Below the pieces are notes generated by a model, which was not told the origin of the DNA, made no database searches, and was given only the letters and a program-made list of their open reading frames with translations. A DNA stretch of 64,000 bases from Minisyncoccia bacterium (GTDB taxonomy: Bacteria; Patescibacteriota; Minisyncoccia; Phycocordibacterales; UBA918), in assembly GCA_046598345.1 (NCBI GenBank), contig JBKJIT010000004.1, forward strand, positions 265,226-329,225, given 5' to 3'. Numbering within the stretch: the first letter of the stretch is position 1; the number at the start of each line of letters is the position of its first letter. The translations under genes were made by a program, and so were the position numbers. Below, piece by piece: positions 7,101-56,372 of this stretch.

Positions 7101-7367
7101 CACACATGAGCCGTTAAAATCGCGAAAAAACTTATACCCTGTCTGGTCGTCGGTAAACACTGTTTGCGAGCCCGCCCGAAGATGAGAAGTTCCTAATGAT
7201 TGAGCATCCGCATCAATCGATACCTGGGCTGCTTCTGCAGTAGGTATGGAAAATTGTAAGGTAACGATGGATTCAAGTGGGAAGCAAAAAAAATACACAA
7301 TGAGAACCATCGCAAAAAATCTGCACCCTTTTTCGAGCCTTTTAAAACCTCCGGACATCCCCTTCAT
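1170..7367 (-). CDS. giant secreted repeat protein (~2066 aa) with tandem ~330-aa modules, RW(R)NDNG…YCFR modules and conserved C-terminal module 'A' (…RYIIVPIF)
   Basis: 6.3-kb ORF. Likely true start MKGMSGG… (7367) followed by a signal/TM (FAMVLIVYFFCFPLE…AEAA). Internal tandem duplication (TSTNFYVGG…HYHWRNDDG…YCFRV occurs twice). The C-terminal ~150 aa are homologous to the C-terminus of 13902-15047. Confidence 0.85.
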   Translation of the reverse strand: MKGMSGGFKRLEKGCRFFAMVLIVYFFCFPLESIVTLQFSIPTAEAAQVSIDADAQSLGTSHLRAGSQTVFTDDQTGYKFFRDFNGSCVYRKTTNGGSSWSSTTTVDAQTDCVQIQVWYDKWTPGMAAASSSIHIATLDTSADDIFYNRLDTSGDSLLMGTAPVSMVSNTAQGGTIDAPTVGTNAISITRGTDGTIYAVSNDAGDSYVVECTINCNLAGSWTETGATPLDAANDYDILVPLLGGNIMVIDRDISLDDIRSKIWDNTAWSAAWTIIDGTAADNTTYDIGMAASVSSTTGTSTVHLAYIATNDTLGTNDQIRTARYSGNAWTAGANVTASTTMGMTNVSIGLDAANDDVYVAYTGRTVAGTVGSANVYWKWATSSMMNWSTESLPVNTSQDDLYGVDLNLQSDQRMYVSYFDNTDDDIYGDTIADIFPGVHASGAGTQIATANASTSNFYVGGKFLLYNTYKPLDVTGVTISESGTIDGSTNISNIKLFYETDVTAPYNCASESYGGSEAQFGSTDTNGFSGANGVSSFSGTTVNVSTTTSLCLYPVLTILDTTANNATIEIEIANPASDVTVTGGTAGPATTQSISGATTVLNDIPTLAHYHWRNDDGTETTATSKTGGNEDTSLTALQQGVPARLRMEVSNEGGSSTPAMQYRLEYAQTTGACSAATGWTDVGAANGEFDMYNTTNLTDGADTTNVALGANGAVTDENTTFLSPNGAVKDTSSQTANILLTTTQYVELEYSLMASTSAAEGNTYCFRVTDKGNPLFAYDQIPRANIAADVLVTATGTQISTTNLPATNFYVGGAFVVTNNIGSRNVTSITIAEDGTIDAQNDLSNIRLKYDLDTTLPYDCSSESYGGNEPQFGATTTGGFSGANGTSTFTGSVGITTTATMCVYTVLDSTATAQNGEVVNIIMQSPSTNLVVSGGGSVSPAITRDITGSTTFAGAVLTQTHYHWRNDNGNEAAATSLSGGLEDTPILNVAETTPVRLRMQVSNEGSVTSASRALTLEYGAKITTCGAVSAWINVGDTGGAWDMFNSTNLTEANDTTNIAVATGGVTDENVTFLTPNSAVKETSATVATTTLTSTQYIETEHSIIQTANAGFDITYCFRLVTTQVELNAYTVYPELTTSPDRDFEIQRGTATITGTSLTLTAGVDYTAPSASTSAFMRITNTHHTGAGSTLAGATQNADDVTAYISNPSNIMTSVTLNRASTATGNSRVSWEIVEFIGEVGSDNEMIVRSQTSLAYGTTATTATGTTATVSDDSDVVVFITGQMDPDIAATNYNSGQSTSAWGAVGNVPVFTRGVAGSDATIVSYAVVEFTGPNWITQRSEHTYTAAGTAETEAITAVGSLSRTFIHTQKRIITGLTGVDEFGHEVWLSSIGFVSYFLESGATTPSGQTSVAWIIENIQTSSGAMDVTRSSGSSNAGTAPLTISVSIGKTLTDISNASIFANSRSAGTATNYPRPIAGATIASTTHYELWRSNTGANLTYRTEIVEWPTAGLALRQHHFQFFVDNNALDPTDVWPPGGTDLAEDGVLGTTDEPLGEGEHIRIRMSIQAQNATFPAGTKSFRLQYGQMISTCTAISEGSWITLGDAASSTIWRGYNATGTTDGTLLSGDPPTPGDLNLPSGSDVAGTLEEENDTAVNTYALPVGEAMEFDWMIEQNGASAETYYCFRMVESDNTPLDEYGPYPQLLTASFSPKTQNWRWYDDEQNETPTDDLALENVSPIDITITQALTLRVTVKETKNIAEANARFKLQYSEYADFSTSTDLVASSTCIATSTWCYANGGAVDNVKITTATLSDADSCVTSVGNGCGTHNESSRVLTGFRHENSAAAEYSFTIQAAAPRVNRVYYFRLYDVVEDAPVLKNTGESYPSLVTEGASLFFTIQGVTAGSSVEGITTDITSGTTSIPFGSLPVNSDIEAAQRLMVSTNATEGYQIFMLTNSDFISGSADTIAPITGTNGTPVSWNTGCEAGFSGCVGYHAGDDTLLGGSTRFSAIDTYARLSTTTLDEIIYSSAPVTNETTDMVFKIKARQMQEAGSYGTSIRYIIVPIF

Positions 7368-7377
7368 TATCGCGCAC

Positions 7378-9135
7378 TTATGTAGACGAAGCGACGTCTT
7401 CCTGTGAATCCAGTGTTTCTTCACCGCTAGGAATAAAGGGAGCAATTATAAGATCTGGATGTAATACTTGGATACTAGATTCTAAATCCGGAATGATTAG
7501 ATCCTGAATGAGCGATACATCAGGTTGGTCATCCAAGATAAGCTCCGGTGTGGTTGTACCTGGAGTAAAGGGTAAGATAACAACATCCTCTCCCATAGTT
7601 GCTTCTGGTGTCGTAGTTCCGACCTGTGGCTCGGGCTCCGGGCCGGTGTTTGAATCGTTATTCGAATCAGTATCACTTCGCGGCTTAGGTTGCGTAAGTT
7701 GATTTACAAGCGCACGGTCTTCTCCGGTCTGGTCGGGATCTGGAATATTGTCTGGAGTTGCTCCTGGCTTCGACGAAAGTGGTACAACTTCACCACTTTC
7801 GAGGTCATACCCCTTTGTTTCAACATCTCCATTTTGAAGTTTTGTGTCATAAATGAGCACAAATCTTGGATTATCAACTGATGCACCCTCAGAGTCAGCA
7901 ATCGTATCTACCTGTTTCGTCAGTCGATCGTACACTTTCACACGCCATGCACCATCTTCAAAAGATTGCCACATGATGTAGTTCCCGTTTATCCTAGGCG
8001 ATATATCATGAGTGTTATTATCCGTGATCATTGAAAGTTCACCATCTTCTTCGAGCATAATCTCCCAATCATTTCCAACCCATCCCTGCCAGACGATAAT
8101 GTCTCCAAAGCGAGAGGGCTGCATATTATTGTACCGATCCTGGGTTAATTGACGTTCTTCTTCTTTGTCTACATCGTAGGACATAATTTGATACCGCTCA
8201 TCAATGAGTCGGTGCCATACGATTGATTCTGACAGCTCGTCATAGACTGGTGCATCATCATCTACTTGATTTGAAGTGATTTGAGTTAACTCGCCTTTCC
8301 GCTCAACATATATTTCCCTGTCTCCTTCTACGTCAATTGCAGAAAAAACCCTTTCCGTTCCATCCACTGTCGCTAGACTTGCATCAGTTGAACAATAAAA
8401 CGAGTTGTCGCTCATGCTTACACACTCATCTTTTGAAAACATGAATTTGTTTTCATCATTAAAAAGCGTATTGACGGAGACCGTGTCTAGCGTTGAGGTA
8501 GCAATCAACTCAGTTGATGTTGCCTCGGAAGGTAAGTCTGGCAAGAAGTCTGTCTCAGTATTAGTATCAGGGTCAGGGTCTGTCTCAGGAATAATATCGG
8601 TTTCCACCTGATCAGGGAAAACATCATTAGGTGGCGCGACTTCTGGTGTAGATGAGGGTTCAACTTCAGGAATTGGCAACACCCCTGTTGGTATAGGTAG
8701 TTCTGTAGTATCAGATTCATCAGAAGTTTCTGCTGTGGTATCTACAACCACTACTCCATCACTTTCAGCTGGGATAGATACAGATTCAGGTAGATTTTCT
8801 CCCTCCGCATCAGATGACGATGTATCAGTTACATCTTCATTTTCTGGTAACGCATTTGGTACCTCATTTTCGAGTTCAATTTCCATAACTGGCTCTTCTA
8901 CAGTATCTAGAGAATTATTACCTTCATCAGTAACTGCTTCTGATTCAGCGGCAGTATCGATCATTGCTCCATCTTGCTCCTCAGAAGCAAAAACTGGGCT
9001 GAGCGGCAAAAGTGCGAGCGTCAGAAGCGCAGCAGACGCACAGAGTTTCCAAAATATATTCAAAAAACCACTGTGCACAAAAACGTGTGCATGTGCATGT
9101 GTATGTGCCGTTGTATGTTCCCTATATCTGCTCAT
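7378..9135 (-). CDS. secreted acidic protein with Glu/Asp/Pro/Thr-rich low-complexity N-half and W-rich beta-propeller-like (PD40/TolB-like) repeats
   Basis: 598-aa ORF. Probable start MSRYREH… followed by a signal peptide (…LALLPLSPVFA|SEE). Repeated 'VWQGWVGNDWEIML / IMWQSFEDGAWRVKVYD' motifs. Function unknown. Confidence 0.6.
   Translation of the reverse strand: MSRYREHTTAHTHAHAHVFVHSGFLNIFWKLCASAALLTLALLPLSPVFASEEQDGAMIDTAAESEAVTDEGNNSLDTVEEPVMEIELENEVPNALPENEDVTDTSSSDAEGENLPESVSIPAESDGVVVVDTTAETSDESDTTELPIPTGVLPIPEVEPSSTPEVAPPNDVFPDQVETDIIPETDPDPDTNTETDFLPDLPSEATSTELIATSTLDTVSVNTLFNDENKFMFSKDECVSMSDNSFYCSTDASLATVDGTERVFSAIDVEGDREIYVERKGELTQITSNQVDDDAPVYDELSESIVWHRLIDERYQIMSYDVDKEEERQLTQDRYNNMQPSRFGDIIVWQGWVGNDWEIMLEEDGELSMITDNNTHDISPRINGNYIMWQSFEDGAWRVKVYDRLTKQVDTIADSEGASVDNPRFVLIYDTKLQNGDVETKGYDLESGEVVPLSSKPGATPDNIPDPDQTGEDRALVNQLTQPKPRSDTDSNNDSNTGPEPEPQVGTTTPEATMGEDVVILPFTPGTTTPELILDDQPDVSLIQDLIIPDLESSIQVLHPDLIIAPFIPSGEETLDSQEDVASST
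9071..9120. repeat. imperfect TGTGCA/TGTGTA microsatellite-like tract, in or just upstream of the 5' end of gene 7378-9135
   Basis: ctgtgcacaaaaacgtgtgcatgtgcatgtgtatgtgccgttgtatgttc. If translated it would encode HTTAHTHAHAHVFVH, upstream of the signal peptide. Confidence 0.4.
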
Positions 9136-9360
9136 ACGTACAAGTGAATAAGGTACTTTTAACCCATTCTGCACCCATTACTCCCTTGTACCTTTATCCT
9201 ACCAATATCTACAGTGCTTTCCCCAGCCTTATCAACAGTAATTGTACGGTTATCCTCAGTATGCAGCAATGACAGTACGTCCTAAATTAAGGTGGATATG
9301 CTGATGAAATCAGACCTAAATTGGCGCACTTCCAAGTAATCCAGCAATGGAGGGTGTTTG

Positions 9361-10101
9361 CTATTTAAAGAAAGAATCTGCAAGTAAGATTGAAAAGTCT
9401 CTAAAACTCATTTTTCCATCCCCATTAAAATCAAAAGTTTTACCTTTCGTAAACCAGGCGGCCATGAACGCAGAGATGTCACGCAGATCAACCTTCCCAT
9501 CCCCATCAAGATCTGTAACGATTCCTATTCTAGCCTCTCCTTCTAGCTTACCTAGGGTACTTGGGGAAATGGACACACGAGTTTCTTGAGAACCAATATC
9601 ATTTACATCTACCAAAGTTCCTTTCCCATCTCCCGCAATAAAAGTCGCTGAATCCATTATCACGTGAGCAAGCCCTCCGGCTCGCGCCTTAGCCTGAATG
9701 CGCACAATAGGATGCTCACCCACAAAACCGCGTCTAAACGTTCCCCCGCGCAGATAAATCTTTCCATTCTTCGCATAAGGGGGTTCTGTCCAGAGTGTTA
9801 TAACTGACGTCCCTGTATCAATACTCTCAATTGTAAGCTGTGATTCTGGATACGTGATGACCAAATCCACTGCGTTCACCGGCACATGCGCTGTCGCACG
9901 GACATCAATATAAATCTGCTCACCTTCCTTCACTGTCGAAGGAGTGGTAGTAATCGAAATGTACGAACCCTGATTAACTGCAACTGATGCGACTCCAGCA
10001 AAGATGGCCGCAAACAGAACGACCGGAAACGCATATCGCACCGTCTTATTTTCATGAAGCGGGTATGCGGGAAACAAGATTTTCCACAAGCTTCGAAACA
10101 T
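9361..10101 (-). CDS. membrane-anchored cohesin-domain + dockerin-domain fusion protein
   Basis: N-terminal TM (FPVVLFAAIFAGVASVAV). Cohesin-like region (…VNAVDLVITYPESQLTIESIDTGTSVITLWTEPPY…). Two Ca-binding dockerin repeats (DLDGDGKVDLRDISAFMAAW; DFNGDGKMSFRDFSILLA). Confidence 0.75.
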   Translation of the reverse strand: MFRSLWKILFPAYPLHENKTVRYAFPVVLFAAIFAGVASVAVNQGSYISITTTPSTVKEGEQIYIDVRATAHVPVNAVDLVITYPESQLTIESIDTGTSVITLWTEPPYAKNGKIYLRGGTFRRGFVGEHPIVRIQAKARAGGLAHVIMDSATFIAGDGKGTLVDVNDIGSQETRVSISPSTLGKLEGEARIGIVTDLDGDGKVDLRDISAFMAAWFTKGKTFDFNGDGKMSFRDFSILLADSFFK

Positions 10102-10103
10102 AG

Positions 10104-10760
10104 CTAGGGTGTTAACGTGGCTCGAATACTATCAATCTGTTTGTCTTGCACACTCAAAGATTCGCCAAGCGCCTGAGCGTCCTTTGTGAGATCCGTGAGT
10201 GCCATCCCAGAGCTTTTTTCACCCTTTATAAGGGTGGTAATGATATCGCTTTGAATCTGTGTCAGGTCCCGGAGGCTTGCACTACGATCACGCTCAAGTG
10301 CAATAAGTTTCTCCCATGCATCCAAGTTGGTTCCTTCAGACTGCATTCCAAGTGTTTCAAGCAAATGTACGTTTGTTTCTAAAATCTCAAATTCTCGTTC
10401 AAGTTTCGCAACCATAAGTGCCTTACGCTCAGAATAAAAACTCCCGCAACTTTCAAAAAGCTGCTGGACGACGAGGAGATCCCTGTTTCCAAGAGTTCCA
10501 AGAGTATTAATTAATGATTCAAATTCAGTCCGTCTCTCACAATCAGCAACGATAGTTGCAGTAACAGCATCTGCTTCATTTCTATCAGTAATTTCAGCGA
10601 GTTTCGACATGTGCGTATGTTCCTTTTTTATTGTCTCCATTAGTGTGGTGGCAGCTGCGGCCTTTTCATGATGCGCAACGAGTGCACTCACTGTAAGAGC
10701 AATTGCAAAGAAAACGAGGTGAACGGCAATGAGCAAATGGTTTTTTAAGAGTGATTGCAT
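10104..10760 (-). CDS. membrane-anchored coiled-coil protein (hypothetical)
   Basis: 218-aa ORF with N-terminal TM (LLIAVHLVFFAIALTVSALVA) and the remainder predicted helical/coiled-coil. 3-nt spacing to the next gene. Confidence 0.6.
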   Translation of the reverse strand: MQSLLKNHLLIAVHLVFFAIALTVSALVAHHEKAAAATTLMETIKKEHTHMSKLAEITDRNEADAVTATIVADCERRTEFESLINTLGTLGNRDLLVVQQLFESCGSFYSERKALMVAKLEREFEILETNVHLLETLGMQSEGTNLDAWEKLIALERDRSASLRDLTQIQSDIITTLIKGEKSSGMALTDLTKDAQALGESLSVQDKQIDSIRATLTP

Positions 10761-10764
10761 ATGA

Positions 10765-12480
10765 CTATTCTACTATATGCTCAACATCAATAATTTCTTT
10801 TCTAATTTTTGCACGAGCACTTGCAACATCCTCTTCGATTTGTTCAATGAATGTGCTCTCTGCGCGTGTGAACTTCCCCTTACGCGATTCTTTAAGTTCA
10901 GCTACATTCGCATGAAGATTCGTAAGGATCGTGTCTAGCTCAGACTTTACAACGTCCTCAATCTCATGCGTCTCCGTTTGCACTTTTTTACGCCAGAGCG
11001 AAAGCCTATGGTATGAATACCAGCAACCGAATACAAGTAGAACAAGAAGAGCAAGAAGTGGCACAATGACTGAAAGGACACTTACCATAAAGGATCCAAC
11101 GCGCAGGTATCCAGGTTCCTCAACAATAATCCGAAGCGTATCCGACGGCTCACTGACTGCACCAAATGAGTCTGTGGCGACTGCAGAAATATCGTACACG
11201 CCAACCTCGAGTCTTGAATCCGGAATAAAGGTAAAGACACCGCTATCAATTGCTGTGACAATATAGGTCTCCGTTACACCGTTAGAACGAGTAAGTGATA
11301 TTTCAACTGTAGCATTTGGTCTCGTTGTACCCTTAAGTGCTGGAATAACTTCTGGACTTATTCGCTCGGGATATTCTGTAAAAAAAGGTTTCTCAAATGA
11401 CGAAACATCAAATGAGTACGTGGCAGCACGACTATTTCCAGCGCTATCAAACGCCTCCACGATTACTGTGTGTCGACCTGGAGGAAGTATGGGAAGCGTG
11501 TACTGTTTCGTACCCTTTTCATCTGCATATTCAATAAACTCACCTCCATCTATTTGAATGCGATACTTTAAGATCGGCGAGACGTCGGTAATGGTAAATA
11601 CGAGCGTTCGCGTGGGAGTATCTAGATTCTCACGTGCTATCTCAGCGATAGTGAATGCTGAGGGTGCCTCAGTATCAACCCCCAATCTTACGTGCGCGAC
11701 CTTACCCCAACCTTCAGCATTTTTAAATTGAATGTGGAAATACGAGACTCCTTGAGGAAGATCAGTGAGTGTCTTTTTTCGCAATGCCTCCTCGTACACT
11801 ATCGTCGGAATTGTTCCCGCAGTATTGTCGAGAAGCGTGCGTACCGCAGTCACATCACTCGGTACTCCCCAGGTGAGCTCTGCAGTCGTTTCCTTGTACC
11901 ATGCAGTCTGATCTGGATGCGTGGTCGATGTTACTACAGGTGCTTTCGGTGTGTTCGCTGGAGCAATATACTCTGGTTCGGGGTTTTCAGCTTGCGCTGA
12001 AATAGTGTAGGCTCCTCCATTCATTGCGGTGAGAACATTTGTGCCTAATCCATCTGCAGCAAGTACGGATCCACTTTTAAAAGTAAGTTTTGGATTTCCT
12101 GCCGCTGTTGGCCGAAGCGTAATGGAAAGAATAGTACCGCCACTGCCCGTATATCCGGTTGGAGAGCCGCCACCAAACGAGATTGTTCCCGCTGAATTGG
12201 AAAAACTCGGCTCCTCGGTCCATAGATTAAAAATTGAACCTGCGCGAGATACACTCACGACTGTTAGTTCGCGCGGATTAAAGCTAAGCTGTCCGTCAGC
12301 TGCGTTAACTGGCTTGCCTTGTGTATTAAGCACTACGTTAGCAGTAAATGTGCTGCCTGTCGTATACACGCCTGTGTCAGGACTTACGCGAAGAGTTGCT
12401 GCATATCCGATATGGATAATAGAAAAAAAGGCAACAATCGAAATTAAAGTACTTACAACTAGGGTGCGAATATTATTCAT
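10765..12480 (-). CDS. cohesin-domain surface protein with Ig-like domains, C-terminal TM and cytoplasmic coiled-coil tail
   Basis: Signal peptide, then a cohesin-like N-domain (LRVSPDTG…NAADGQLSFNPRELTVVSVSRAGSIFNLWTEEPSFSNSAGTISFGGGSPTGY). TM (VSVLSVIVPLLALLVLLVFGCW) followed by a charged helical tail. Paralog of 44243-45769 and 12473-13567. Confidence 0.75.
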   Translation of the reverse strand: MNNIRTLVVSTLISIVAFFSIIHIGYAATLRVSPDTGVYTTGSTFTANVVLNTQGKPVNAADGQLSFNPRELTVVSVSRAGSIFNLWTEEPSFSNSAGTISFGGGSPTGYTGSGGTILSITLRPTAAGNPKLTFKSGSVLAADGLGTNVLTAMNGGAYTISAQAENPEPEYIAPANTPKAPVVTSTTHPDQTAWYKETTAELTWGVPSDVTAVRTLLDNTAGTIPTIVYEEALRKKTLTDLPQGVSYFHIQFKNAEGWGKVAHVRLGVDTEAPSAFTIAEIARENLDTPTRTLVFTITDVSPILKYRIQIDGGEFIEYADEKGTKQYTLPILPPGRHTVIVEAFDSAGNSRAATYSFDVSSFEKPFFTEYPERISPEVIPALKGTTRPNATVEISLTRSNGVTETYIVTAIDSGVFTFIPDSRLEVGVYDISAVATDSFGAVSEPSDTLRIIVEEPGYLRVGSFMVSVLSVIVPLLALLVLLVFGCWYSYHRLSLWRKKVQTETHEIEDVVKSELDTILTNLHANVAELKESRKGKFTRAESTFIEQIEEDVASARAKIRKEIIDVEHIVE

Positions 12481-13567
12481 ACAGTTGCTCCTCTGGTGCT
12501 TTTTTTATGAGTGCCTTTTTCCGGCGTATGAGAATATATGCTAGTACAAGAACGACAAGAAGTGCTCCCCCAACACTAACGAAGAGCGAAGTTAAGCGCT
12601 CCCTGGAAATTGTACGGAGTGCCTCTTCAGGGACGAGAACTGCGATGGTCTCGTTACCAGCTTTGTCTATGGCCTTTACGCGAATTGTACTATTTAGAGT
12701 CTGATCTTTAAGAACATACGGACTCTCTGTTTCTACCCAAGGAGCATCCGCTCCACCCCATTTGAACGCATAGAAATCTTCGAGTGGTTCCTCGATGACT
12801 TCATAGTGATCGATTCCAGATTGCTTGTCTTGCGAGTTGAAGGAAATAAAATATCGGCCGCTAAACGCATTTTCTTCTCGAGCAAGTGAAATAACAAAAT
12901 CTGATGGACGAGCAGAATCTTGAGCAACTAGATCCTTCCAAGAGTCTTCCGTGGTTGCACCTGCATTTGGGAGCAAGACTATCGTGGCATCCTGCAAGCG
13001 TAAGTTGCTCTGGGTTCCTCTACCGTCATGGAGAAGCACTTGAGAAATACCGTCAACCCAAATTTTTCCACTCGCAGTGTTCCCTCCTGTGCCGACACTA
13101 AAACCTGGTGACCGAAACATCAGCTCGGCAATGATGTTTGTAAGGCTAGGATCTCCCGCAATCCTGCCACAGTAACCACCAGGAAGTCCTCCCGCAAAAG
13201 TAATCGTATGATTCGTCTCGTCGATCACTGGATCTTCAACCCAAATATTTAATATTGAATTTCCTCGTGAGACATCAACTGCGCGAATTGACGGATCATA
13301 CTTTATGACTATATCCACTGCATTGATGCACTCATCTTCGTCCGTATCGATGCGTAGCCCAATCGTTGCGGTATCTCCCCGACTCACCTGTAATTCTGAT
13401 GGGTCAAAATATAAAAGCGCTGCATTACTGGTGCTTACAATGCCAAAAAAAACTAATGCACTTACTATGCACGCATTCGCAAGCGAAAAAAGAGAGCGAA
13501 AAATACTCATACCGAATGCACATAGTATAGCAGTGGAGCACCTACCCTGACGCATAGCTACCCACAT
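12473..13567 (-). CDS. cohesin-domain surface protein with C-terminal TM anchor
   Basis: N-terminal signal/TM. Cohesin-like (…QVSRGDTATIGLRIDTDEDECINAVDIVIKYDPSIRAVDVSRGNSILNIWVEDP…TFAGGLPGGYCG). C-terminal TM (LFVSVGGALLVVLVLAYILI) followed by RRKKALIKK. Overlaps the downstream gene by 8 nt. Confidence 0.7.
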   Translation of the reverse strand: MWVAMRQGRCSTAILCAFGMSIFRSLFSLANACIVSALVFFGIVSTSNAALLYFDPSELQVSRGDTATIGLRIDTDEDECINAVDIVIKYDPSIRAVDVSRGNSILNIWVEDPVIDETNHTITFAGGLPGGYCGRIAGDPSLTNIIAELMFRSPGFSVGTGGNTASGKIWVDGISQVLLHDGRGTQSNLRLQDATIVLLPNAGATTEDSWKDLVAQDSARPSDFVISLAREENAFSGRYFISFNSQDKQSGIDHYEVIEEPLEDFYAFKWGGADAPWVETESPYVLKDQTLNSTIRVKAIDKAGNETIAVLVPEEALRTISRERLTSLFVSVGGALLVVLVLAYILIRRKKALIKKAPEEQLYE

Positions 13568-13598
13568 TTACGAGAACTGTGTAGGCTTTAGCATTAGG

Positions 13599-13666
13599 TG
13601 TTGGACGGTGTGCGTCCAAAATCAATTGTGAATAGGATTTTATGACGGACTTGGAAAATATAGTCA
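13599..13666. promoter_or_regulatory. ~67-bp promoter-like repeat element (copy A), 32-100 nt upstream of cohesin gene 12473-13567
   Basis: gttggacggtgtgcgtccaaaatcaattgtgaataggattttatgacggacttggaaaatatagtca. Its reverse complement reads TTGACT-N19-TAAAAT. Near-identical to 15476-15542. Confidence 0.45.
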
Positions 13667-13815
13667 AGATGCTTATAACGGTTACTAAACGTTAGAGTGC
13701 GTCGTCTTCACAAGGCATAGGGAAAGCTTGTGAAGACGGGCTCCGAAAATATAGTCACTACGCTCCTTATTTTCGGGCCACCCTTTTGTCACGAAAATTT
13801 GAGATTTTCATGATG

Positions 13816-13858
13816 GGTTTTTCTTTTATCCAGAAACCTGGATAAAAGAAAAACCCGT
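13816..13858. terminator. perfect 19-bp stem / 4-nt loop hairpin (GGGTTTTTCTTTTATCCAG aaac CTGGATAAAAGAAAAACCC) 45 nt downstream of gene 13902-15047
   Basis: Inverted repeat read directly. AU-rich stem closed by a GGG/CCC clamp; the flanking U-tract is imperfect. Confidence 0.5.
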
Positions 13859-13901
13859 CTCGTGGTGGGAGATAGGGTTTTTCTCAACTCTTATTCTGTC
13901 G

Positions 13902-15047
13902 CTAGAACATCGGTGTTGCTATGTAGCGAAGTGTCGTCGTATAGTCGTCACCCGCTTCTTGCAATGCCGAGATTTGGACCTGGTAACCAATTCGTGCCCT
14001 ACCAAAACCGTTAGTAGTGCCGTCAGCTGGCCCCGTGTGACCCATAATCACAATCGGTGTTGTACTGCCAGATGCCCACTCGTTTGCATCGAATTCATCG
14101 ATACCAGCACGTGAGGTTGTTGCATCTTCTGAGGTGATCCCCCAGTGGCCGTATGTTGCCGTATCAGTGATGACCGCGCCTGGCGCCTGCCACGCTGTTG
14201 GCGTGTAGGTGTTTGCTCCATCGATGAATCCATCAATAGTTGCTCCAGTCGTTGACTGCAATGCACCGGTTTGCTCAACAGTTACGCTGTAGCCGTTTGA
14301 GGCATTTGTCGTAACTGAAAGGTCCTGTGCAAGCGTTTTCGATACGTTAATGTTTAGCGTTCCAAATGGAAGCGAGACACTCGTACTCGTTGCAGATGTT
14401 GTTGTAGGACTGCTGTTCACACTTGAACTTGCAGCCACTCCTGATACGGTAAACGTAAGAGAAGTATCAACACTTGCTGTCATGGTCACTTGATCAATGA
14501 TTGCTACACGAATTTGTCCGTCATCCGGTGACGTACCGTCTATATCAATTGGATACGAGGTCGTTGCCGAAGGATTCACAATCTGTGTATTACCTGCACC
14601 ACCAGCTGCTGCATGACTACCAATCTCAATTGAGAATGGGGTACTCGATGCCTGGCCGACGTTACTGGGTGAAGTGAAAGTGATCGTTTGACTCGATGTA
14701 CTTACACCCCAAATTCCAGATCCGTTTGTAGGAGCAATTGTTTGCTCTGTACCAGATGCAGTGAGATCAAAATCTTCAACACCAAGTGCTGGGATTGTGA
14801 ACTGTGCTGGGAAGGTAATAGTGATTGTTTGACCTGCAGTCATACCATTTGGCGATGTAAACGCGACGGTATGATTGGATGCTACGCTAGGCGCAGAATT
14901 GGACAAGGTATCGCTTGCGCTTGTGATTGATGACGCTTCCGCAGTGCGGAAGATTGTTGGAAGTCCAGTAGTCCAAAGGAACACTGCAAGTCCAACTATC
15001 ATCGCGACAGCCTGGAGAGTTCGCACGGTCGTTGCCGTGTGAATCAT
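13902..15047 (-). CDS. surface protein carrying C-terminal module 'A' (…TLRYIATPMF), the small paralog of the 2091-aa giant's C-terminus
   Basis: 381-aa ORF with N-terminal signal-anchor (AVAMIVGLAVFLWTTGLP). C-terminal ~150 aa align with the giant 1170-7367 C-terminus (SLPFGTLNINVS ~ SIPFGSLPVNSD; QEAGDDYTTTLRYIATPMF ~ QEAGSYGTSIRYIIVPIF). Confidence 0.75.
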   Translation of the reverse strand: MIHTATTVRTLQAVAMIVGLAVFLWTTGLPTIFRTAEASSITSASDTLSNSAPSVASNHTVAFTSPNGMTAGQTITITFPAQFTIPALGVEDFDLTASGTEQTIAPTNGSGIWGVSTSSQTITFTSPSNVGQASSTPFSIEIGSHAAAGGAGNTQIVNPSATTSYPIDIDGTSPDDGQIRVAIIDQVTMTASVDTSLTFTVSGVAASSSVNSSPTTTSATSTSVSLPFGTLNINVSKTLAQDLSVTTNASNGYSVTVEQTGALQSTTGATIDGFIDGANTYTPTAWQAPGAVITDTATYGHWGITSEDATTSRAGIDEFDANEWASGSTTPIVIMGHTGPADGTTNGFGRARIGYQVQISALQEAGDDYTTTLRYIATPMF

Positions 15048-15475
15048 AGGCTTTACGTTGTATTAATCGAATATGTTGACTCTAATAATGAGCGGCATTG
15101 TGGCGTTGTGCTCTTGCAACACCCTATACCTAGTAATCAAGGGAGTCTCCACCCCTCTTTGATTCACATTCAACATATTACGGGGACCAGACAATACTCG
15201 GCTGTAAGTATTGGAAACTCATACTTGCGTATTCATTTCAGAAATACATCTCTCACATGTATGAAATGTATACCTCCAATCACCGCAACTTCATTGTAGC
15301 GTGCGCATTATTTTAATGAGTGTACTTATGCACAAAAATTAGTATAAGTATCAAGTATGAGTATGATTTTGCGCAGAGATACCTCGTCCGCTTGCGGCGA
15401 GGACCCTGCGAGCTGACGTTTTTACGGACTCAGGAATTATAGTCGCTACGCCACTCTTACATACTGGAACTCAAC

Positions 15476-15542
15476 GTTGGACGGTGTGCGTCACATAATC
15501 CATTTTGAATAGGATTTAGTAACGGACTCAGAAATTATTTTG
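15476..15542. promoter_or_regulatory. ~67-bp repeat element (copy B) in the long 15048-15585 intergenic region
   Basis: gttggacggtgtgcgtcacataatccattttgaataggatttagtaacggactcagaaattattttg. Additional copies of the 21-bp core ACGGRCTYNGRAAWTATAGTC occur at 13735-13763 and 15424-15451. Confidence 0.45.
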
Positions 15543-15585
15543 AAAAGCAAACAATTGCTTTTCAACTACGCTCTGTGATTTAGGG

Positions 15586-16713
15586 TCAACCGGTCCAGTT
15601 GAAGAGAAGGATCGAAAAGTCTTCCAGTCCTACTTTTGCATTTTGATTTATGTCCGCAGGTGGATTAGAGTTGCCGCCAGGTGTACCCCACCAAAAGATA
15701 AGGATTGAGAAGTCAATAAGATTTACCTTTCCGTCACGATTGAGATCAGAATTACTTACTGCTTTCCCTTCTACTCCCACGAAGAGTGAAATTGCAGTGC
15801 CATACGTGCTTTCTGTTTTCAACGCGCCTGTACCTGTGATGAAACGTGCCTTTGCAGTATGTGTGTCGATTGATACTTCTCCCGTATCAAAAGCAACACT
15901 CCAATTACCAGAAGTGTCGGAGGTCGCTGTAAGTATTTTACGATTATTATCAATTGAAACTTCGACTGGCACACTTGGTACCGTTTGACCCGAAAGCGTA
16001 ATGGTGTCCCCCGGGTTTGGAGAGGCATTTGAAGCGCGAATCGTTGGCGGAATTAAAATCCCATTTACACTTGTTACTGCACCCTGCGTGACATCAAATG
16101 TTGTGTTGAAGGTAGCAGAACGTGTTCCCTGCGAATCATTTGCCCAGAAACTAAACGATGCTGCACCTGGTTCTGCATCAGTATTAAATAAAAACTCTCC
16201 TTTACTATTCGTACGCACACTTCCTATTGAATCGCCGTCCATAAGTATATTCACAGTTGCATTCGGATATGCCTTTCCTTGCAGAGTGACCTGCGTGTCA
16301 CCAAGAGCCTCGTTACTTCCACCTGAAGCAGAACTACCTCCACCTCCAGAGCTTCCGCCACCAGCATCTGCACGCTCTTCAGTACAGTCAGCAGCACAAA
16401 AGTCATCATCCTCATTGTTCCCATCATCACACTCTTCAGCATAAATTGTTTGCAAAACAGCATCTCCGCAATAGGGAGCCCAACGGCACACATCCGTACA
16501 CTGTCTCCCTAAAATTGTCGTGCTGTATGCACCCGTATCAGTTGGGACGTCGCAATCTTCTCCTGAGTTAACAATAACGTCTCCACAGATACTAATGAGA
16601 AGACTCGTGGTCGCAATCAGAGTCTGCCCATGCACAACACCAGCAAAGAAAAAAGGGAGACACAGTAAAACAAAAAAGTAACTTTTCATGAGATTACGAG
16701 TATTCAAAGCCAT
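15586..16713 (-). CDS. secreted dockerin-domain protein with N-terminal Myxococcus-type cysteine-rich repeat, Gly/Ser linker and Ig-like domains
   Basis: Signal peptide. 'CGDVIVNSGEDCD…CGDAVLQTIYAEECDDGNNEDDDFCAADC' matches the CxxGxGxxxxGEECDDGN cysteine-rich repeat. C-terminal double dockerin (DLNRDGKVNLIDFSILIFWWG…DINQNAKVGLEDFSILLFNWTG). Paralogous C-terminus to 46486-48339. Confidence 0.75.
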   Translation of the reverse strand: MALNTRNLMKSYFFVLLCLPFFFAGVVHGQTLIATTSLLISICGDVIVNSGEDCDVPTDTGAYSTTILGRQCTDVCRWAPYCGDAVLQTIYAEECDDGNNEDDDFCAADCTEERADAGGGSSGGGGSSASGGSNEALGDTQVTLQGKAYPNATVNILMDGDSIGSVRTNSKGEFLFNTDAEPGAASFSFWANDSQGTRSATFNTTFDVTQGAVTSVNGILIPPTIRASNASPNPGDTITLSGQTVPSVPVEVSIDNNRKILTATSDTSGNWSVAFDTGEVSIDTHTAKARFITGTGALKTESTYGTAISLFVGVEGKAVSNSDLNRDGKVNLIDFSILIFWWGTPGGNSNPPADINQNAKVGLEDFSILLFNWTG

Positions 16714-16716
16714 ACA

Positions 16717-17685
16717 CTACGCTCGTCTCTTTCGAGAACGGACGGTGCGCACAATCACATAACCGAGAAGGCTTGCAAAGAAAAGAATTGGAATTATTAA
16801 AGAAAGCTTGTGTGGCAGAGAGAGTCCCGTGAAGCCAAAGCCTGCAGTTTGCAATGTGCCGTACGGCAAAATACTTACATTAACTTCCCCACTCAGTTTT
16901 ACTTCCTCGTCATTTTTAATTTCGAAACGTGCTAGGTAACTTCCAGATGGAAGCCTCGTTGGAAGTTCTGCAAAGACAGTTTCAGTTTTAAAGGGATTTA
17001 CAGTAGCAATCTTTCCTTTTTTGTGGGTTTCTTCGAGAAGCACTTTTCCGGATGCGTCATAAATTCTAAATACCACGTCACTTGGTGCTACGGGGATATT
17101 ACCCAAATTTTCAAGAAGCATTTCGAATCGGATCCTTCCTGGGAAATAAAGCCATCCTACTTTATGTCCTTCATTCAAATCAGAGATCCCAATTTTTCGT
17201 ACCTTGAAATCTTTAATTTCTTTATCAATAACACTAAGCTTTACATCTATCTGAGCGCCTAATGAAATATTTACTGCACCACCTGCAACCTGATCATCAG
17301 GAGTTCCTGTCTTTATACGAATGTTTCCAGTGTAGTCTCTAAAATCAGCCTTATCAGGAACCTGAACTCTCACTGTCATGGGAACTTTCTGAGCGCCCTG
17401 AGGAAGTAAAAATTCATTTCCCTCTACAATAGTAAACCAATCATTGACTTCAGGAACATCAATACTAATAGTTGCTTTGAGAGCAGTTGTCGGATCACTT
17501 CGTACTAAATAAATAATTTGCTCATACTGGGAGTTTCTAGTAAGGCTGGAATTTGTAACATAGGGAGGTGTAATACCGAAGCCAGCAAAAACTGTGTGCG
17601 CAAGGGAAAAGAGCGCTACAAATGTTAAAAAAAGAGAGCTAAGAAATCTCATTATATAAACCGACCACCAAAATAATGGCGACAA
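16717..17685 (-). CDS. DUF916/DUF3324-like (Csc/DufA-like) cell-surface protein, paralog of 143-1186
   Basis: 322-aa ORF. Signal (…LFSLAHTVFA|GFG), two beta-sandwich domains, C-terminal TM (IIPILFFASLLGYVIV) followed by RTVRSRKRRA. Same architecture as 143-1186. Lies immediately downstream of the module-B protein 17764-19590. Confidence 0.6.
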   Translation of the reverse strand: MSPLFWWSVYIMRFLSSLFLTFVALFSLAHTVFAGFGITPPYVTNSSLTRNSQYEQIIYLVRSDPTTALKATISIDVPEVNDWFTIVEGNEFLLPQGAQKVPMTVRVQVPDKADFRDYTGNIRIKTGTPDDQVAGGAVNISLGAQIDVKLSVIDKEIKDFKVRKIGISDLNEGHKVGWLYFPGRIRFEMLLENLGNIPVAPSDVVFRIYDASGKVLLEETHKKGKIATVNPFKTETVFAELPTRLPSGSYLARFEIKNDEEVKLSGEVNVSILPYGTLQTAGFGFTGLSLPHKLSLIIPILFFASLLGYVIVRTVRSRKRRA

Positions 17686-17763: not shown

Positions 17764-19590
17764 CTACCAATTTGCGGATTCACCAACAATTGCTGTAAAG
17801 GTATTCTCACCTGTGTAGTCACCTGCAAAGGTAATCGTGCCTGGAACTCGGATTCCCCAATACGCATTGTTTGTTGCCTGTGAGGAAGTTGCAGTTGACT
17901 TCGGAACATTGATTTCAATTTCCTGTGGGGTGGTAGATGAAAGTGCAGTTCCCTGAGCATAGGTTACTGTACTAGTAGCAAAGACCTGTTCAGATTCTGG
18001 AATGGTGGAGGTAGACAAACTCGGACAAAGAGTAGAGCCAGTATATGTTGTACACATTGACTCACCAGTTACATCCTTATCAAGCCCGACGTTCCCAGTG
18101 GCAGCAATCGTAGTGGTTGCAGTAATTGGATCCATTTGCTGACCCGGTTCGAGTGATCCATATGGAATTGATAGTGTATTGAGCGCGAAAGCAAGGAAAC
18201 TAGTTACTTCAACTCCGATTGAGCCCTCTGCCAAGCTTCCTGTGGCAGAATTATCATCCACTGCTCGGACCTGTGCAAGCCAGTTTTGTGTTGGATACTG
18301 CGTGGTTGTTGCTGTACCGTCAGTTGGATCTGCAATGTACCAAAGCGGGAATGTACAATTCCACATTTTGTCAGTATCTGATGCACCCGTGCATGATGTT
18401 GTTGATGCTGTGCATGAAATGTTCCAAGTTGTCGTTGGTACACTACTGACATAACAATTGTTTGCATTGTACGAACTTGTAGGAGTACATGTTGAGGAGC
18501 TAACGCCGGATCGATACAAGCTGAGCTGATAACTTACTACCTCACTCGAGGATGCTGCATTGATGCAACTATTATTATCTGCGGCTGTAAACTGCAGAGT
18601 AAAGCCAGTTGTCTGCCCTGCTTCAGTCGTAAGTATGATATCAGTACCTCCATTAATTGAGATCGTTGAACTAGCAACAGATGGTGCAACGTTACTTACA
18701 GTGAGAACTGAGTCAGTGCCTTGCGATCCACCTGAAGCTTCAAATCCATGGTTGTCTATAACATAGCCGAACGCGCCGTAGTTTTGATCTTGAGTTGGAA
18801 TAACAATGGTATATGTCGCAGTTGCGTTTGCAGCAACAGTTATAGTTGTGCTTCCAAGCAGCGTACCAGTACAAGAATCAGTAGATGTACTAAATCCTGC
18901 TGTTGCACACACAATCAGTTTTACCCTATCAGCTGTACCAGAAGTGTCTGAATCTGAAGATGTGCTGTTAAAAATAACTAGCTGGCCAGGATCAGCGGGT
19001 GAATTGTCAGTGAAAATAGTAAATGTTGGTCGATGATTTACTTCAAATGGTGAGGAGTTAGTGGCGTTTGTTCCTTGCGTTGAAATAGTGTTACAACGTG
19101 GAGTTCCCGCGTTTCCGTCACAGATAAATGCAAACCAAGGGTTTGATTCAGCCCAACTGGCATTTGTAGTCGTTGCTGAAACTGCCGCTACACCGCTTGT
19201 TGTTGAAGCAGAAACTGCCCATTGCGTACCGCCACCACATGCGGGTGCAGCACCAGAGTTTGGTGTTGGAGAAGCATTTGTGCTGCAAATAAGAAGATAA
19301 TATCGCTCCCCGTTTGAATCAGTACCAATAGCCGTCCAAGAAACTACATCCCCCGCATTCGTAGGATTTGTTGCAGATGATTCAACAACTTCTGTGGTAG
19401 TGGCTGTCCATAGGGGAGGTGTGTTGAGAACTGTAACTGAAGTAGTAGCCTGACTTTGAGCGTCTACTTGAAGGAGTTCTTGGGAGCCAAGATTAAAAAC
19501 GAATGCAATCGCAAATACGAAAACCCCGATGATCGTGGTGTACACAGTGATTTTACCTGCCGTACGTAAATTATCTGTGTTATAAGACAT
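17764..19590 (-). CDS. N-terminally anchored Thr/Ser-rich surface protein carrying C-terminal module 'B' (…YWGIRVP…), the small paralog of the 5587-aa giant's C-terminus
   Basis: 608-aa ORF with TM anchor (ITVYTTIIGVFVFAIAFVF). C-terminal ~250 aa align with giant 27418-44181 (YRSGV…NNCY…ADPTD…; SIPYGSLEP ~ TIGYGALEV; YWGIRVPG ~ YWGIAIPSG). Confidence 0.75.
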   Translation of the reverse strand: MSYNTDNLRTAGKITVYTTIIGVFVFAIAFVFNLGSQELLQVDAQSQATTSVTVLNTPPLWTATTTEVVESSATNPTNAGDVVSWTAIGTDSNGERYYLLICSTNASPTPNSGAAPACGGGTQWAVSASTTSGVAAVSATTTNASWAESNPWFAFICDGNAGTPRCNTISTQGTNATNSSPFEVNHRPTFTIFTDNSPADPGQLVIFNSTSSDSDTSGTADRVKLIVCATAGFSTSTDSCTGTLLGSTTITVAANATATYTIVIPTQDQNYGAFGYVIDNHGFEASGGSQGTDSVLTVSNVAPSVASSTISINGGTDIILTTEAGQTTGFTLQFTAADNNSCINAASSSEVVSYQLSLYRSGVSSSTCTPTSSYNANNCYVSSVPTTTWNISCTASTTSCTGASDTDKMWNCTFPLWYIADPTDGTATTTQYPTQNWLAQVRAVDDNSATGSLAEGSIGVEVTSFLAFALNTLSIPYGSLEPGQQMDPITATTTIAATGNVGLDKDVTGESMCTTYTGSTLCPSLSTSTIPESEQVFATSTVTYAQGTALSSTTPQEIEINVPKSTATSSQATNNAYWGIRVPGTITFAGDYTGENTFTAIVGESANW

Positions 19591-19662: not shown

Positions 19663-20877
19663 TTATTCATAGCGAATTGCATCGAGTGGGTTGAGTAACG
19701 AAGCACGACGTGCAGGAAATATTCCCGTCAGATACCCAACTCCACCTGAGAAGAGAGCGATAAATGTGAGGAATCCAAGTGGGAACGCGAAGAGGCCTAC
19801 AGACTGCCCTCCGAATTGACTTGCCGCAAGATTGAGGAGTAAATTCACAACCCATCCCAAGGTTACCCCCATGACTATCCCACTCACTCCCCCCAGGAAA
19901 CCCACAATGATAGATTCTGAAACAAATAAGAACTTAATGTCTCGAGGAGAGGCTCCAATAGTGCGCATAATCCCAATTTCCTTCGTTCGCTCAAGAAGAG
20001 TCACCGTCATCGTATTAAACATACCGATCGCAGACACAAGGAGCGCAATACCACCAAATGTTGCCAGCACTGCCTGAACTCCCTCGAAAATCTTAGAGGC
20101 CTGCTCCACCGTCTTGGAAAGTGCAGTCACACGGTATCCCGCCTTAATAAGGCTTTCTTCAATGAGTGGAAGAAACTCACTGGACACCACTTTAACCTGA
20201 GCGCGATCATAGACTTCAATTCCCACATAGTTTTTAAGCTCAGGGAGCATCATGAGCGCATTAAGAACCCCCTCCTCCTTGGTTACTCCTTTTACCTTGT
20301 ATTGCTTTGCAATATTAATTTCAGTAATTGCATCGGTACCATCATTTGCCGGAATAAGGAGACGGAACGAAACCTCCTGTCCGATGAAATTGTTGATTTG
20401 ATCATCCGCGATACCGAAAAGCTTGAGTACCGCGGGTGAAATCATCACTTCGTTCGTATTGCCAATATCTTCATCCTTAAATACATCTCCCGCTGAGGTG
20501 GTAATACCTGCATACCGAAGGTATGCAGGTTCAGCGCCTTGAAGAAAGATGTTTCCTGTAAGCCCTTTATAAGTAATGAGCGCAGGAAAACGTGCGAGGG
20601 GCGCTGCATCCTCAATATTGGGATCTTTTTCAAACTCCCCGATTATGTCGTCATCAATAACAATGTTCTTCCCTCCAGTAGCGGAAACACCCAAGGAAAG
20701 GAGGCTGTCCCCGAAAACGATCTGTTCGAGAATAATCTGCTGTAGTCCAAAGCCAAGTCCCACAAGGACCACAACCGCACCCGTACCAACACCCATACCC
20801 AAAATTGTAAGCCACGTACGAAGTGGATTTGTCTTAAACATACGCGTCGAAAGACGCGCAAGATCAACTACTTGCAT
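19663..20877 (-). CDS. ABC transporter permease, FtsX/MacB family
   Basis: 404-aa ORF with TM1, a large extracytoplasmic domain, and three C-terminal TMs of FtsX type (…GASPRDIKFLFVSESIIVGFLGG…). Its start codon lies inside the repeated 'ACTTGCAT…CTATATAGTAAA' cassette. Confidence 0.8.
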   Translation of the reverse strand: MQVVDLARLSTRMFKTNPLRTWLTILGMGVGTGAVVVLVGLGFGLQQIILEQIVFGDSLLSLGVSATGGKNIVIDDDIIGEFEKDPNIEDAAPLARFPALITYKGLTGNIFLQGAEPAYLRYAGITTSAGDVFKDEDIGNTNEVMISPAVLKLFGIADDQINNFIGQEVSFRLLIPANDGTDAITEINIAKQYKVKGVTKEEGVLNALMMLPELKNYVGIEVYDRAQVKVVSSEFLPLIEESLIKAGYRVTALSKTVEQASKIFEGVQAVLATFGGIALLVSAIGMFNTMTVTLLERTKEIGIMRTIGASPRDIKFLFVSESIIVGFLGGVSGIVMGVTLGWVVNLLLNLAASQFGGQSVGLFAFPLGFLTFIALFSGGVGYLTGIFPARRASLLNPLDAIRYE

Positions 20878-21689: not shown

Positions 21690-21701
21690 TTACACTTGGA
21701 T

Positions 21702-21735
21702 CAACGACTTGCATCCTCTATATAGTAAAAATAAG
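21702..21735. repeat. copy 2 (shortest) of the start-site cassette, in the convergent 3' intergenic space between the sugar transferase and protease genes
   Basis: 'caacgACTTGCATCCTCTATATAGTAAAAATAAG'. It would encode MQVVDPSVTKSLVQGIRL* on the minus strand but has no downstream gene, so it is probably a remnant. Confidence 0.5.
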
Positions 21736-21745
21736 TAGCGAGTGA

Positions 21746-22615: not shown

Positions 22616-22656
22616 ACAGACAGAATTGGTGTGTGCCCAAGATCAGCGACTTGCAT
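22612..22656 (-). CDS. putative 14-codon leader ORF (MQVADLGHTPILSV) translationally coupled (ATGA overlap) to the S1 protease
   Basis: Lies within copy 3 of the cassette. Reading the minus strand: ATG CAA GTC GCT GAT CTT GGG CAC ACA CCA ATT CTG TCT GTA TGA, where the TGA overlaps the protease ATG (GTATGAGTG). Confidence 0.35.
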   Translation of the reverse strand: MQVADLGHTPILSV

Positions 22657-22715: not shown

Positions 22716-22726
22716 GTTAAATGCAA

Positions 22727-53178: not shown

Positions 53179-53179
53179 A

Positions 53180-54093: not shown

Positions 54094-54094
54094 A

Positions 54095-56371: not shown

Positions 56372-56372
56372 A

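Follow-up and report, generated by a model that had tools for sequence, protein, structure and literature searches.

In the cellulosome, as known from Acetivibrio/Clostridium thermocellum (OlpA/OlpC, CelS), cohesin proteins are bound to the cell and dockerin proteins are secreted, in an assembly that has enzymes, carbohydrate-binding modules (CBM), several tandem cohesins, and SLH or sortase anchoring. Members of the same two module families, again with the cohesin protein cell-bound and the dockerin protein secreted, are encoded by an operon in a stretch of 64,000 nucleotides from a Minisyncoccia bacterium (contig JBKJIT010000004.1 of assembly GCA_046598345.1, positions 265,226 to 329,225), which is called the window here and whose cohesin-dockerin locus is the subject of this analysis. 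However, none of the other cellulosomal features is found at this locus; its cohesins have a transmembrane (TM) helix, followed in the 571- and 508-aa proteins by a cytoplasmic tail, and a fixed set of three cohesin and two dockerin classes is carried in a conserved operon of this Paceibacteria (Parcubacteria) genome of the Candidate Phyla Radiation (CPR). Proteins are named throughout by the lengths encoded by the open reading frames (ORFs) of the window. Closer in use, i.e. beyond cellulose degradation, are the glycosidase/toxin complexes of Clostridium perfringens and the proteins of Archaeoglobus fulgidus, which provide the best structural matches (2vo8, 2jh2 and 2w1n; 2xdh), and A. fulgidus can hold both modules in one protein as does the 246-aa protein of this locus. 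In these pairs the partners are soluble enzymes, or else proteins whose context is unknown, whereas here the cohesins are integral membrane proteins in an operon of pilus/adhesin type.

Two other systems resemble the surroundings of the modules. Pam pili, a CPR-specific system described in 2026 in a Saccharibacterium, Ca. Mycosynbacter amalyticus, are built of pilins that consist of a beta-sandwich at the N-terminus, a linker strand that is donated and a truncated immunoglobulin (Ig) C-domain; two PapD-like chaperones and a terminator, PamR, are anchored in the membrane (bioRxiv 10.64898/2026.03.03.709456). The present locus is likewise from a CPR bacterium and encodes a 381-aa pilin-like protein, in which an N-terminal beta-sandwich is followed by a conserved strand and by a C-domain with a sub-threshold match to NF058581, as well as two paralogous membrane-anchored proteins of 322 and 347 aa that may be PapD-like. 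It differs in its neighbourhood, which holds a MacB ABC (ATP-binding cassette) system and an FN3 protein rather than ATP synthase/CorB, and in its proposed membrane-anchored beta-sandwich tether, which would be the cohesin proteins instead of PamR. The WxL clusters of Gram-positive bacteria consist of a small WxL, a large WxL and a WxLIP protein (PMC10599100); they share with this locus the pairing of a small and a very large secreted protein with a common C-domain (381/2091 and 608/5587 aa here) and a two-Ig protein with a C-terminal TM helix, but belong to a different phylum and have no cohesin/dockerin component. No WxL domain was matched among the window proteins in Pfam and family scans.

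Non-cellulosomal cohesins and dockerins are already known, and part of the proteins considered here had already been annotated automatically. A literature search found no paper on this operon or on any cohesin-dockerin role in CPR bacteria (Parcubacteria/Patescibacteria); the nearest mention is of an essential dockerin-domain protein in the Saccharibacterium Southlakia (PMC10633639). The modules belong to a cell-surface operon of ~14 genes that is kept in at least 80 Paceibacteria species, and on balance they probably act as the non-covalent anchoring and assembly parts of a membrane-anchored surface fibre or adhesin apparatus.

Cohesin modules

Profile scans of every six-frame ORF, with a Ca-loop pattern added for the dockerins, place four cohesin modules (in the 246-, 364-, 571- and 508-aa proteins) and three dockerin modules (in the 246-, 375- and 647-aa proteins) in the whole window. 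All ORFs of the cohesin/dockerin set listed in an initial annotation of this DNA are present at the positions given there, on the minus strand (Table 1), and each cohesin-bearing protein holds a single cohesin. Against a gathering score of 24.1 bits for Pfam Cohesin (PF00963), the 571-aa protein (28.0 bits, E 2.9e-6) and the 508-aa protein (30.9 bits, E 3.7e-7) lie above threshold and the 364-aa (16.1 bits) and 246-aa (17.2 bits) proteins below it. The four N-domains are mutually homologous by blastp (E 1e-8 to 1e-65), family profiles (1e-8 to 1e-46, and 1e-8 to 1e-20 where the 364- and 246-aa proteins are matched with the other two) and hhalign (99%); they form three classes, of which the first unites the 571- and 508-aa proteins (blastp E 1.6e-65; 49% identity in the cohesin), while the 364- and 246-aa classes are 25-31% identical to the rest. 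The cohesin-like N-domains that had been proposed for the 571-, 364- and 508-aa proteins are thus supported by the two Pfam matches above threshold and by this mutual homology.

The initial annotation had weighed a cohesin fold against a generic Ig fold, and structure prediction speaks for the former. The most divergent cohesin, that of the 246-aa protein, was modelled with AlphaFold2 (AF2) from an alignment of 37 orthologues, which gave a beta-sandwich with pLDDT 86-93 over most of its length (pTM 0.53). In a Foldseek comparison with the PDB nearly all of the top 50 matches to this model are solved cohesins: the best is 2vo8, the cohesin of C. perfringens GH33 (E 3e-8, TM 0.83, root mean square deviation 2.4 A), the second is 2xdh, a non-cellulosomal A. 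fulgidus cohesin, and the model superposes as well on the OlpA/OlpC and CipA cohesins. As modelled, the N-domain of the 246-aa protein is a cohesin fold and not a generic Ig domain. Rank 28 in the same comparison is 9ifr, a CLIPPER domain related to isopeptide-bond adhesin domains. Profile searches against PDB sequences found neither a cohesin nor a pilin for the 571 and 381 families but only Big-type Ig repeats, apolipoprotein-like helices and noise, and the Pam structures were not found in that set; the evidence on fold was therefore taken from AF2 and Foldseek. A common fold family of the cohesin and the pilin N-domain was also considered, and was rejected at the sequence level (hhalign ~1%).

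The 571-aa protein, which also matches Pfam Big_13 (E 8e-12), has more than 1000 homologues of near-constant length and 54-69% identity, from Paceibacterota, Kaiserbacteria, Minisyncoccia and similar metagenome-assembled genomes, some of them named 'cohesin domain-containing protein' at NCBI. The 246-aa family comprises ~800 relatives at 55-66% identity, with the length fixed at 244-248 aa. All 81 orthologues of the 571-aa protein have the TM helix and a tail of ~79 aa, and all 79 of the 364-aa protein have the C-terminal TM helix followed by merely ~17-19 aa. The initial annotation had given all three of the separate membrane cohesins a TM helix with a long charged helical tail; this description fits the 571- and 508-aa proteins (~80 aa) and fails for the tail of the 364-aa protein. 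In the former two the tail (~79-85 aa) is conserved from species to species as well as between the two paralogues and keeps invariant charged residues; it is charged and helical with a hydrophobic period of 3.6 and 3-4-7 (heptad-like) spacing, a pattern that makes a coiled coil plausible. A suggested kinship of these tails with the 218-aa protein encoded next to the 571-aa cohesin was not upheld (hhalign probability 0.8%). The 364-class cohesin and its orthologues carry two invariant cysteines (CIN..VD and GYCGRI) that are missing from the other classes, suggestive of a disulfide within the cohesin.

Dockerin modules

All three dockerins exceed the gathering score of Pfam Dockerin_1 (PF00404, 22.9 bits), at 25.7 bits for the 246-aa, 23.8 bits for the 375-aa and 35.5 bits for the 647-aa protein. 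Each contains two 12-residue loops of the form D-x-[ND]-x-[DN]-[GA]-x-[VM]-x3-[DE] with a helix after each, and among the six-frame ORFs of the window the pattern occurs in these three alone. The loops start at residues 197 and 224 in the 246-aa protein (aa 197-208 and 224-235), 323 and 354 in the 375-aa protein, and 595 and 626 in the 647-aa protein, and have Asp or Asn at positions 1, 3, 5 and 12; in the AF2 model of the 246-aa protein the dockerin helices lie at aa 206-218 and 233-245. In phmmer alignments with solved type I dockerins, those of CelS (2mte/1daq, E 2e-4), the C-terminal 63 residues of the 647-aa protein match across both loops. Both Ca loops are kept in 48 of 51 orthologues of the 375-aa protein and 69 of 74 of the 246-aa protein. 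The dockerin-type repeats with Ca-binding geometry that had been proposed are thereby confirmed, except that what was called a double dockerin is in each case a single dockerin module of the usual kind, which has two canonical repeats. These modules would probably act with the cohesins of the locus as Ca2+-dependent, non-covalent connectors.

The dockerins form two classes, that of the 375- and 647-aa proteins (78% identity) and that of the 246-aa protein (~40% to those), and in the 375 family the dockerin is the best-conserved segment. Topology, Pfam and the AF2 model agree that the 246-aa protein joins a TM anchor, a cohesin and a dockerin in one chain, as had been read from the sequence. 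Signal peptides and the close likeness of their dockerins likewise substantiate the description of the 375- and 647-aa proteins as secreted proteins with similar C-termini, and the Cys-rich repeat noted in the former is matched by TIGR02232 and DUF4215. The latter had been said to contain only Ig-like domains besides its dockerin, which is incorrect, for the N-domain of the 381-aa pilin-like protein has a homologue in residues 64-231 of the 647-aa protein. No glycoside hydrolase (GH), carbohydrate esterase (CE), polysaccharide lyase (PL), CBM or any other catalytic family was matched in the three dockerin proteins, nor any GH, CBM or SLH domain in the cohesin/dockerin proteins, in scans with Pfam and NCBIfam. 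The absence of a GH match from the dockerin cargo, the single cohesins, the TM anchors and the CPR organism all agree with the earlier description of the set as non-cellulosomal.

The conserved operon

A survey of one genome per species returned 80 loci, in which order was compared at the level of ORFs wherever the flank sufficed. In essentially all of these species-level Paceibacteria/Parcubacteria loci with enough flank one order and strand is found without variation, with conserved protein sizes: FN3 protein, ABC ATPase, MacB/FtsX permease (404 aa), 608, 322, 375 (dockerin), 381, 364 (cohesin), 571 (cohesin), 218, 246 (cohesin and dockerin), 598, a giant of ~2050 aa, and 347. The three cohesin and two dockerin classes are immediate neighbours in at least 70 species. 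Gene presence was counted over 84 loci; the 218-aa gene, whose product matches no Pfam or NCBIfam family, occupies the same position in 73 of them and the 598-aa gene is present in 71. The genes are tightly packed in the window, the 364 and 571 ORFs overlapping by 8 nt and gaps of 4, 2 and 3 nt separating 571/218, 218/246 and 322/375, respectively. From the invariant order and tight packing the cohesin-dockerin genes are therefore taken to be fixed-stoichiometry parts of a conserved machine. The 322-aa protein is the most conserved of the whole operon (72-84% identity across more than 100 clusters), exceeding the cohesins and the pilin-like protein, and the identities across species argue for strong purifying selection on the 571-, 246- and 322-aa proteins. 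The block 647 - Hsp20 - 508 - 5587 lies outside the conserved core.

Some records with the Paceibacteria-type operon are titled Acidimicrobiales, Azotimanducaceae or, at many loci, 'uncultured Candidatus Saccharibacteria'; such titles probably reflect mislabelled or contaminated bins or generic submitter names and not an operon outside Paceibacteria. In the present genome three genes (window 21060-24013), for a membrane protein of 428 aa, a protease of HtrA type and, on the plus strand, a sugar transferase, stand between the ATPase and permease genes, which are adjacent in other genomes. The insert is absent from the other loci and so looks like a lineage-specific insertion into the operon. 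The ATPase carries a helical C-terminal extension of ~200 aa that matches no family, and its size is conserved in other genomes (440 aa).

Pilin-like, giant and PapD/WxLIP-like neighbours

The only family that consistently matches the 381-aa protein and its relatives is NCBIfam NF058581 (CPR_Pam_pilin_C), and all scores are under the curated cut-off of 55 bits: the window protein itself reaches 20.5 bits (E 4e-4), 33 of 41 orthologues match it as their only or main family (best 1.3e-7), as do 24 of 41 diverse relatives (best 7.9e-10), and one relative matches PamT (NF058579). The C-domain of the 381-aa protein may accordingly be distantly related to the Pam pilin C-domain, at a sub-threshold level of similarity. 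Conservation in the family is highest in the strand region (aa 187-201) and in the strand at the C-terminus, which may hint at a donor-strand filament. Some distant relatives, of 570-1022 aa, are fused to other domains, one of them matching 'TafC family fimbrial protein' (E 4e-11) and two 'choice-of-anchor B', which hints at a wider family of fibre subunits.

The C-domain is shared with one of the giant proteins of the locus, the last ~155 aa of the 2091-aa protein being the C-domain of the 381-aa protein (profile E 2e-16, reciprocal 6.7e-25). In parallel, the C-terminal ~200 aa of the 608-aa protein recur at the C-terminus of the 5587-aa giant (blastp E 1.2e-16, profile E 1.1e-26). The two giants have almost no Pfam content, DUF2341 and Ig_Rha78A_N being matched in the larger only, and they share internal repeats (34% over 211 aa). 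The N-domain of the pilin-like protein recurs in the secreted 647-aa dockerin protein, where residues 64-231 match the 381 N-domain profile with E 7.5e-23 and include the start of the conserved strand; in place of the acceptor C-domain of the pilin, this protein has Ig-like domains and the dockerin.

The 322- and 347-aa proteins are paralogues (hhalign 96%, E 4e-9), and the latter has a weak match to WxLIP_PGBD (E 0.009). An AF2 model of the 322-aa protein (pLDDT 66.8, i.e. moderate) matches, with low TM-scores, the WxLIP of Enterococcus faecium (9i25/9i1y, among the top matches), RbmA and fimbrial chaperones. The 322-aa protein is a candidate for a PapD/MSP/WxLIP-like chaperone or holder of pilin-like C-domains.

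Proposed anchoring by cohesin-dockerin joints and its alternatives

The invariant operon, the Pam-like pilin, giant, PapD/WxLIP-like and MacB neighbours, and the fusion of a pilin N-domain to a dockerin make the modules look like fixed structural connectors of one surface apparatus, and not like a flexible scaffold for the display of enzymes or other cargo. From the observed identity and topology of the modules, the conserved gene order and the shared domains we infer that the cohesins bind these dockerins, which pairs might form and how these might be linked to the pilin-like proteins. The three cohesin classes would differ in how far they reach out from the membrane: the cohesin of the 246-aa protein would lie close against it, right after the N-terminal TM helix, that of the 364-aa protein beyond one Ig-like domain and that of the 571-aa protein beyond ~300 aa of Ig-like domains. 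There they would capture both dockerin classes, represented by the secreted 375-aa protein and by the 246-aa protein itself, to yield a hetero-oligomeric base tying the secreted subunits to the cell. Since a 571-class cohesin (the 508-aa protein) and a 375-class dockerin protein (the 647-aa protein) have been duplicated together beside the gene of the 5587-aa giant, a pairing of these two classes is suggested. The 647-aa protein could be a chain-ending subunit that plugs the C-domain of a pilin or giant protein and docks the assembly onto a membrane cohesin; this role of chain terminator, proposed by analogy with PamR, is less probable than the anchoring function as such, and that the cytoplasmic tails of the 571- and 508-aa proteins talk to the MacB-type ABC ATPase is speculative.

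Several points weigh against anchoring by such joints. The pairing of the cohesins and dockerins is putative and its wiring a guess, which applies also to the linear order of scaffold, adaptor and cargo in the initial annotation, the proposed adaptor (the 246-aa protein) being itself anchored in the same membrane as the scaffolds. The terminator idea draws only on the lineage-specific 647-aa protein, which has no more than the first half of the conserved strand region, while the 375-aa dockerin protein of the core has no pilin-like domain. The relationship to Pam stays below threshold (best ~1e-9, all under 55 bits), and no similarity is detectable by hhalign between the 608/5587 C-domain and the 381/2091 C-domain. 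The model of the 322-aa protein is moderate, and with low TM-scores its matches fall in a very common beta-sandwich class. Finally, the description of Pam pili mentions no cohesin or dockerin in Pam operons (bioRxiv 10.64898/2026.03.03.709456). A fuller version of the proposal appears unlikely as a whole, namely that Paceibacteria anchor, and perhaps operate, a donor-strand-type fibre and a giant adhesin through cohesin-dockerin joints in place of a sortase, an usher or a PamR-type strand, with dockerin-ended subunits capping the fibre and the tails coupled to a MacB-type ABC motor.

A miniature cellulosome, in which the membrane cohesins would be scaffoldins presenting dockerin-tagged catalytic subunits, e.g. 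against the cell wall polysaccharide of a host, would be in keeping with the membership of the modules in the cellulosomal families and with the HtrA-type protease gene within the locus of this genome. However, the dockerin proteins are without any GH, CE, PL, CBM or catalytic match, the cohesins occur one per protein and not in tandem arrays, just two or three dockerin proteins exist with a fixed one-to-one gene content in 80 species, and the insert with the protease, the 428-aa protein and the sugar transferase is confined to this locus. The cellulosome reading is rejected on domain content, and enzyme display of any such kind is highly improbable. It is also conceivable that the modules are no partners at all: the cohesins would then be beta-sandwiches that bind ligands (e.g. 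host glycans) or act as spacers, and the dockerin-like EF-hand pairs would serve for Ca2+-dependent stabilisation or as tags that bind the wall. Many non-cellulosomal dockerin-like modules reportedly have no identified partner, as Peer et al. are said to have found in 2009. The Pfam scores are modest, with two cohesins under the gathering score, and the essential dockerin-domain protein of a Saccharibacterium is discussed without any cohesin (PMC10633639). Against this stand the adjacency of the cohesin and dockerin genes in at least 70 species, the joint duplication of one class of each, the prominence of the dockerin as the most conserved part of the 375 family and a fold match that is specific to cohesins rather than to generic Ig domains, so that separate functions of the two modules seem unlikely.

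Two further explanations accept docking and assign it another purpose; both are quite unlikely. Docking at the 571- and 508-aa proteins could be relayed through their tails to the extended ABC ATPase or to the 218-aa protein, gating secretion or assembly by transmembrane signalling or mechanotransduction. MacB/FtsX-type transporters are known mechanotransmitters, the ~80-aa tail, with its invariant charged residues and heptad-like spacing, is conserved among species as well as in both the 571- and the 508-aa protein, and the helical extension of ~200 aa on the ATPase is unusual. But by hhalign the 218-aa protein shows no kinship in sequence to the tails, no signalling domain turned up, and the cohesin proteins of 364 and 246 aa are nearly devoid of a cytoplasmic part; the tail could equally serve oligomerisation or localisation. 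The other explanation concerns the 246-aa protein, whose dockerin might bind its own or a neighbour's cohesin and so build a membrane-proximal homopolymer or lattice independently of the other cohesin proteins. A cohesin and a dockerin joined by a flexible linker of ~15 residues in one short chain, and a dockerin class separate from that of the 375- and 647-aa proteins, would suit such self-association. A. fulgidus proteins that combine both modules, and whose cohesin 2xdh is the second-best structural match, provide a precedent, and cohesin/dockerin proteins of this archaeon are reported to show self-binding behaviour.

Paceibacteria are ultra-small bacteria and make up the largest class of the CPR. 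Few bacteria are as abundant and as poorly understood as Paceibacteria/Parcubacteria; almost none has been cultured, and their mode of attachment to hosts or surfaces is unknown. An operon whose gene order is shared by at least 80 species and whose components are 55-84% identical is a strong candidate for a core surface organelle. If its parts are joined by cohesin-dockerin pairs, this toolkit would extend from enzyme display to the anchoring of fibres or adhesins on a membrane, in an architecture that can be checked without culturing the organism, and if true it would tie the locus to the newly described Pam pili of CPR bacteria. Fibre joints of this kind would constitute an undescribed pilus-to-cell attachment and the first physiological role of cohesin-dockerin pairs in host attachment by CPR bacteria. 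Protein engineering might in addition draw new orthogonal pairs from the three cohesin and two dockerin classes.

Genes and features of the surface locus

Table 1. Genes of the locus in order of window position, with the extent of their domains (aa, residues of the encoded protein; nt, window positions)
Gene product	Position	Strand	Features
347-aa paralogue of the 322-aa protein	143-1186	-	beta-sandwich domains; TM helix aa 290-308; last gene of the conserved block
~2091-aa surface protein	1170-7445	-	C-domain aa 1937-2091 (nt 1173-1637); ~2050 aa in other species
598-aa secreted protein	7378-9174	-	beta-propeller repeats (TIGR04275 and TolB-like)
246-aa protein, cohesin and dockerin	9361-10101	-	conserved N-terminal stub; TM helix aa 24-42; cohesin aa ~45-180 (nt 9562-9969); short linker; dockerin aa 196-246 (nt 9364-9516)
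218-aa protein	10104-10760	-	N-terminal TM helix aa 10-28; rest helical
571-aa membrane cohesin	10765-12480	-	signal peptide; distal cohesin aa 28-165 (nt 11986-12399); ~300 aa of Ig-like domains (Big_13/OmpL47-type); TM aa 466-484; charged helical tail
364-aa membrane cohesin, second class	12473-13567	-	signal peptide; cohesin aa ~49-200; one Ig-like domain; TM aa 329-347
381-aa pilin-like protein	13902-15047	-	N-terminal beta-domain aa ~38-190; conserved strand region aa 187-201; C-domain aa 216-381
375-aa secreted dockerin protein	15586-16713	-	signal peptide; Cys-rich repeats (DUF4215/TIGR02232); Gly/Ser linker; 2 Ig-like domains (Big_6); dockerin aa 318-375 (nt 15589-15762)
322-aa (probably 311-aa) membrane protein	16717-17685	-	two beta-sandwich domains; C-terminal TM helix
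608-aa protein	17764-19590	-	N-terminal TM helix; core operon member
MacB/FtsX-type ABC permease	19663-20877	-	Pfam FtsX, MacB_PCD
ABC ATPase, partner of the permease	24054-25457	-	Pfam ABC_tran; ~200-aa helical C-terminal extension (aa ~270-467)
5587-aa giant surface protein	27418-44181	-	adjoins the extra cohesin gene (508)
508-aa membrane cohesin, 571 class	44243-45769	-	signal peptide; cohesin aa 33-170; Pro/Thr-rich linker; Ig-like/FN3 domains; TM aa 409-427; ~80-aa helical tail
Hsp20-family small heat-shock protein, cytoplasmic	45786-46247	-	between the 647-aa and 508-aa genes
647-aa secreted dockerin protein	46486-48429	-	617 aa if started at ATG 48339; signal peptide; pilin-N-domain homologue aa 64-231 (nt 47737-48240); further beta-domain; Gly/Ser linker; 2 Ig-like domains; dockerin aa 590-647 (nt 46489-46662)

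The N-terminal half of the 598-aa protein is acidic and of low complexity, and the ORF starts of its gene and of the 2091-aa giant (TTG at 7445) overlap; both have probably been placed too far upstream. A separate set of type IV pilus genes is found on the minus strand about 4 kb away from the surface locus (window 51874-58052), encoding a PilM-like protein, a PilV-like pseudopilin, PilC/GspF and the PilB/GspE ATPase; the organism therefore has type IV pilus genes as well as the Pam-like system.

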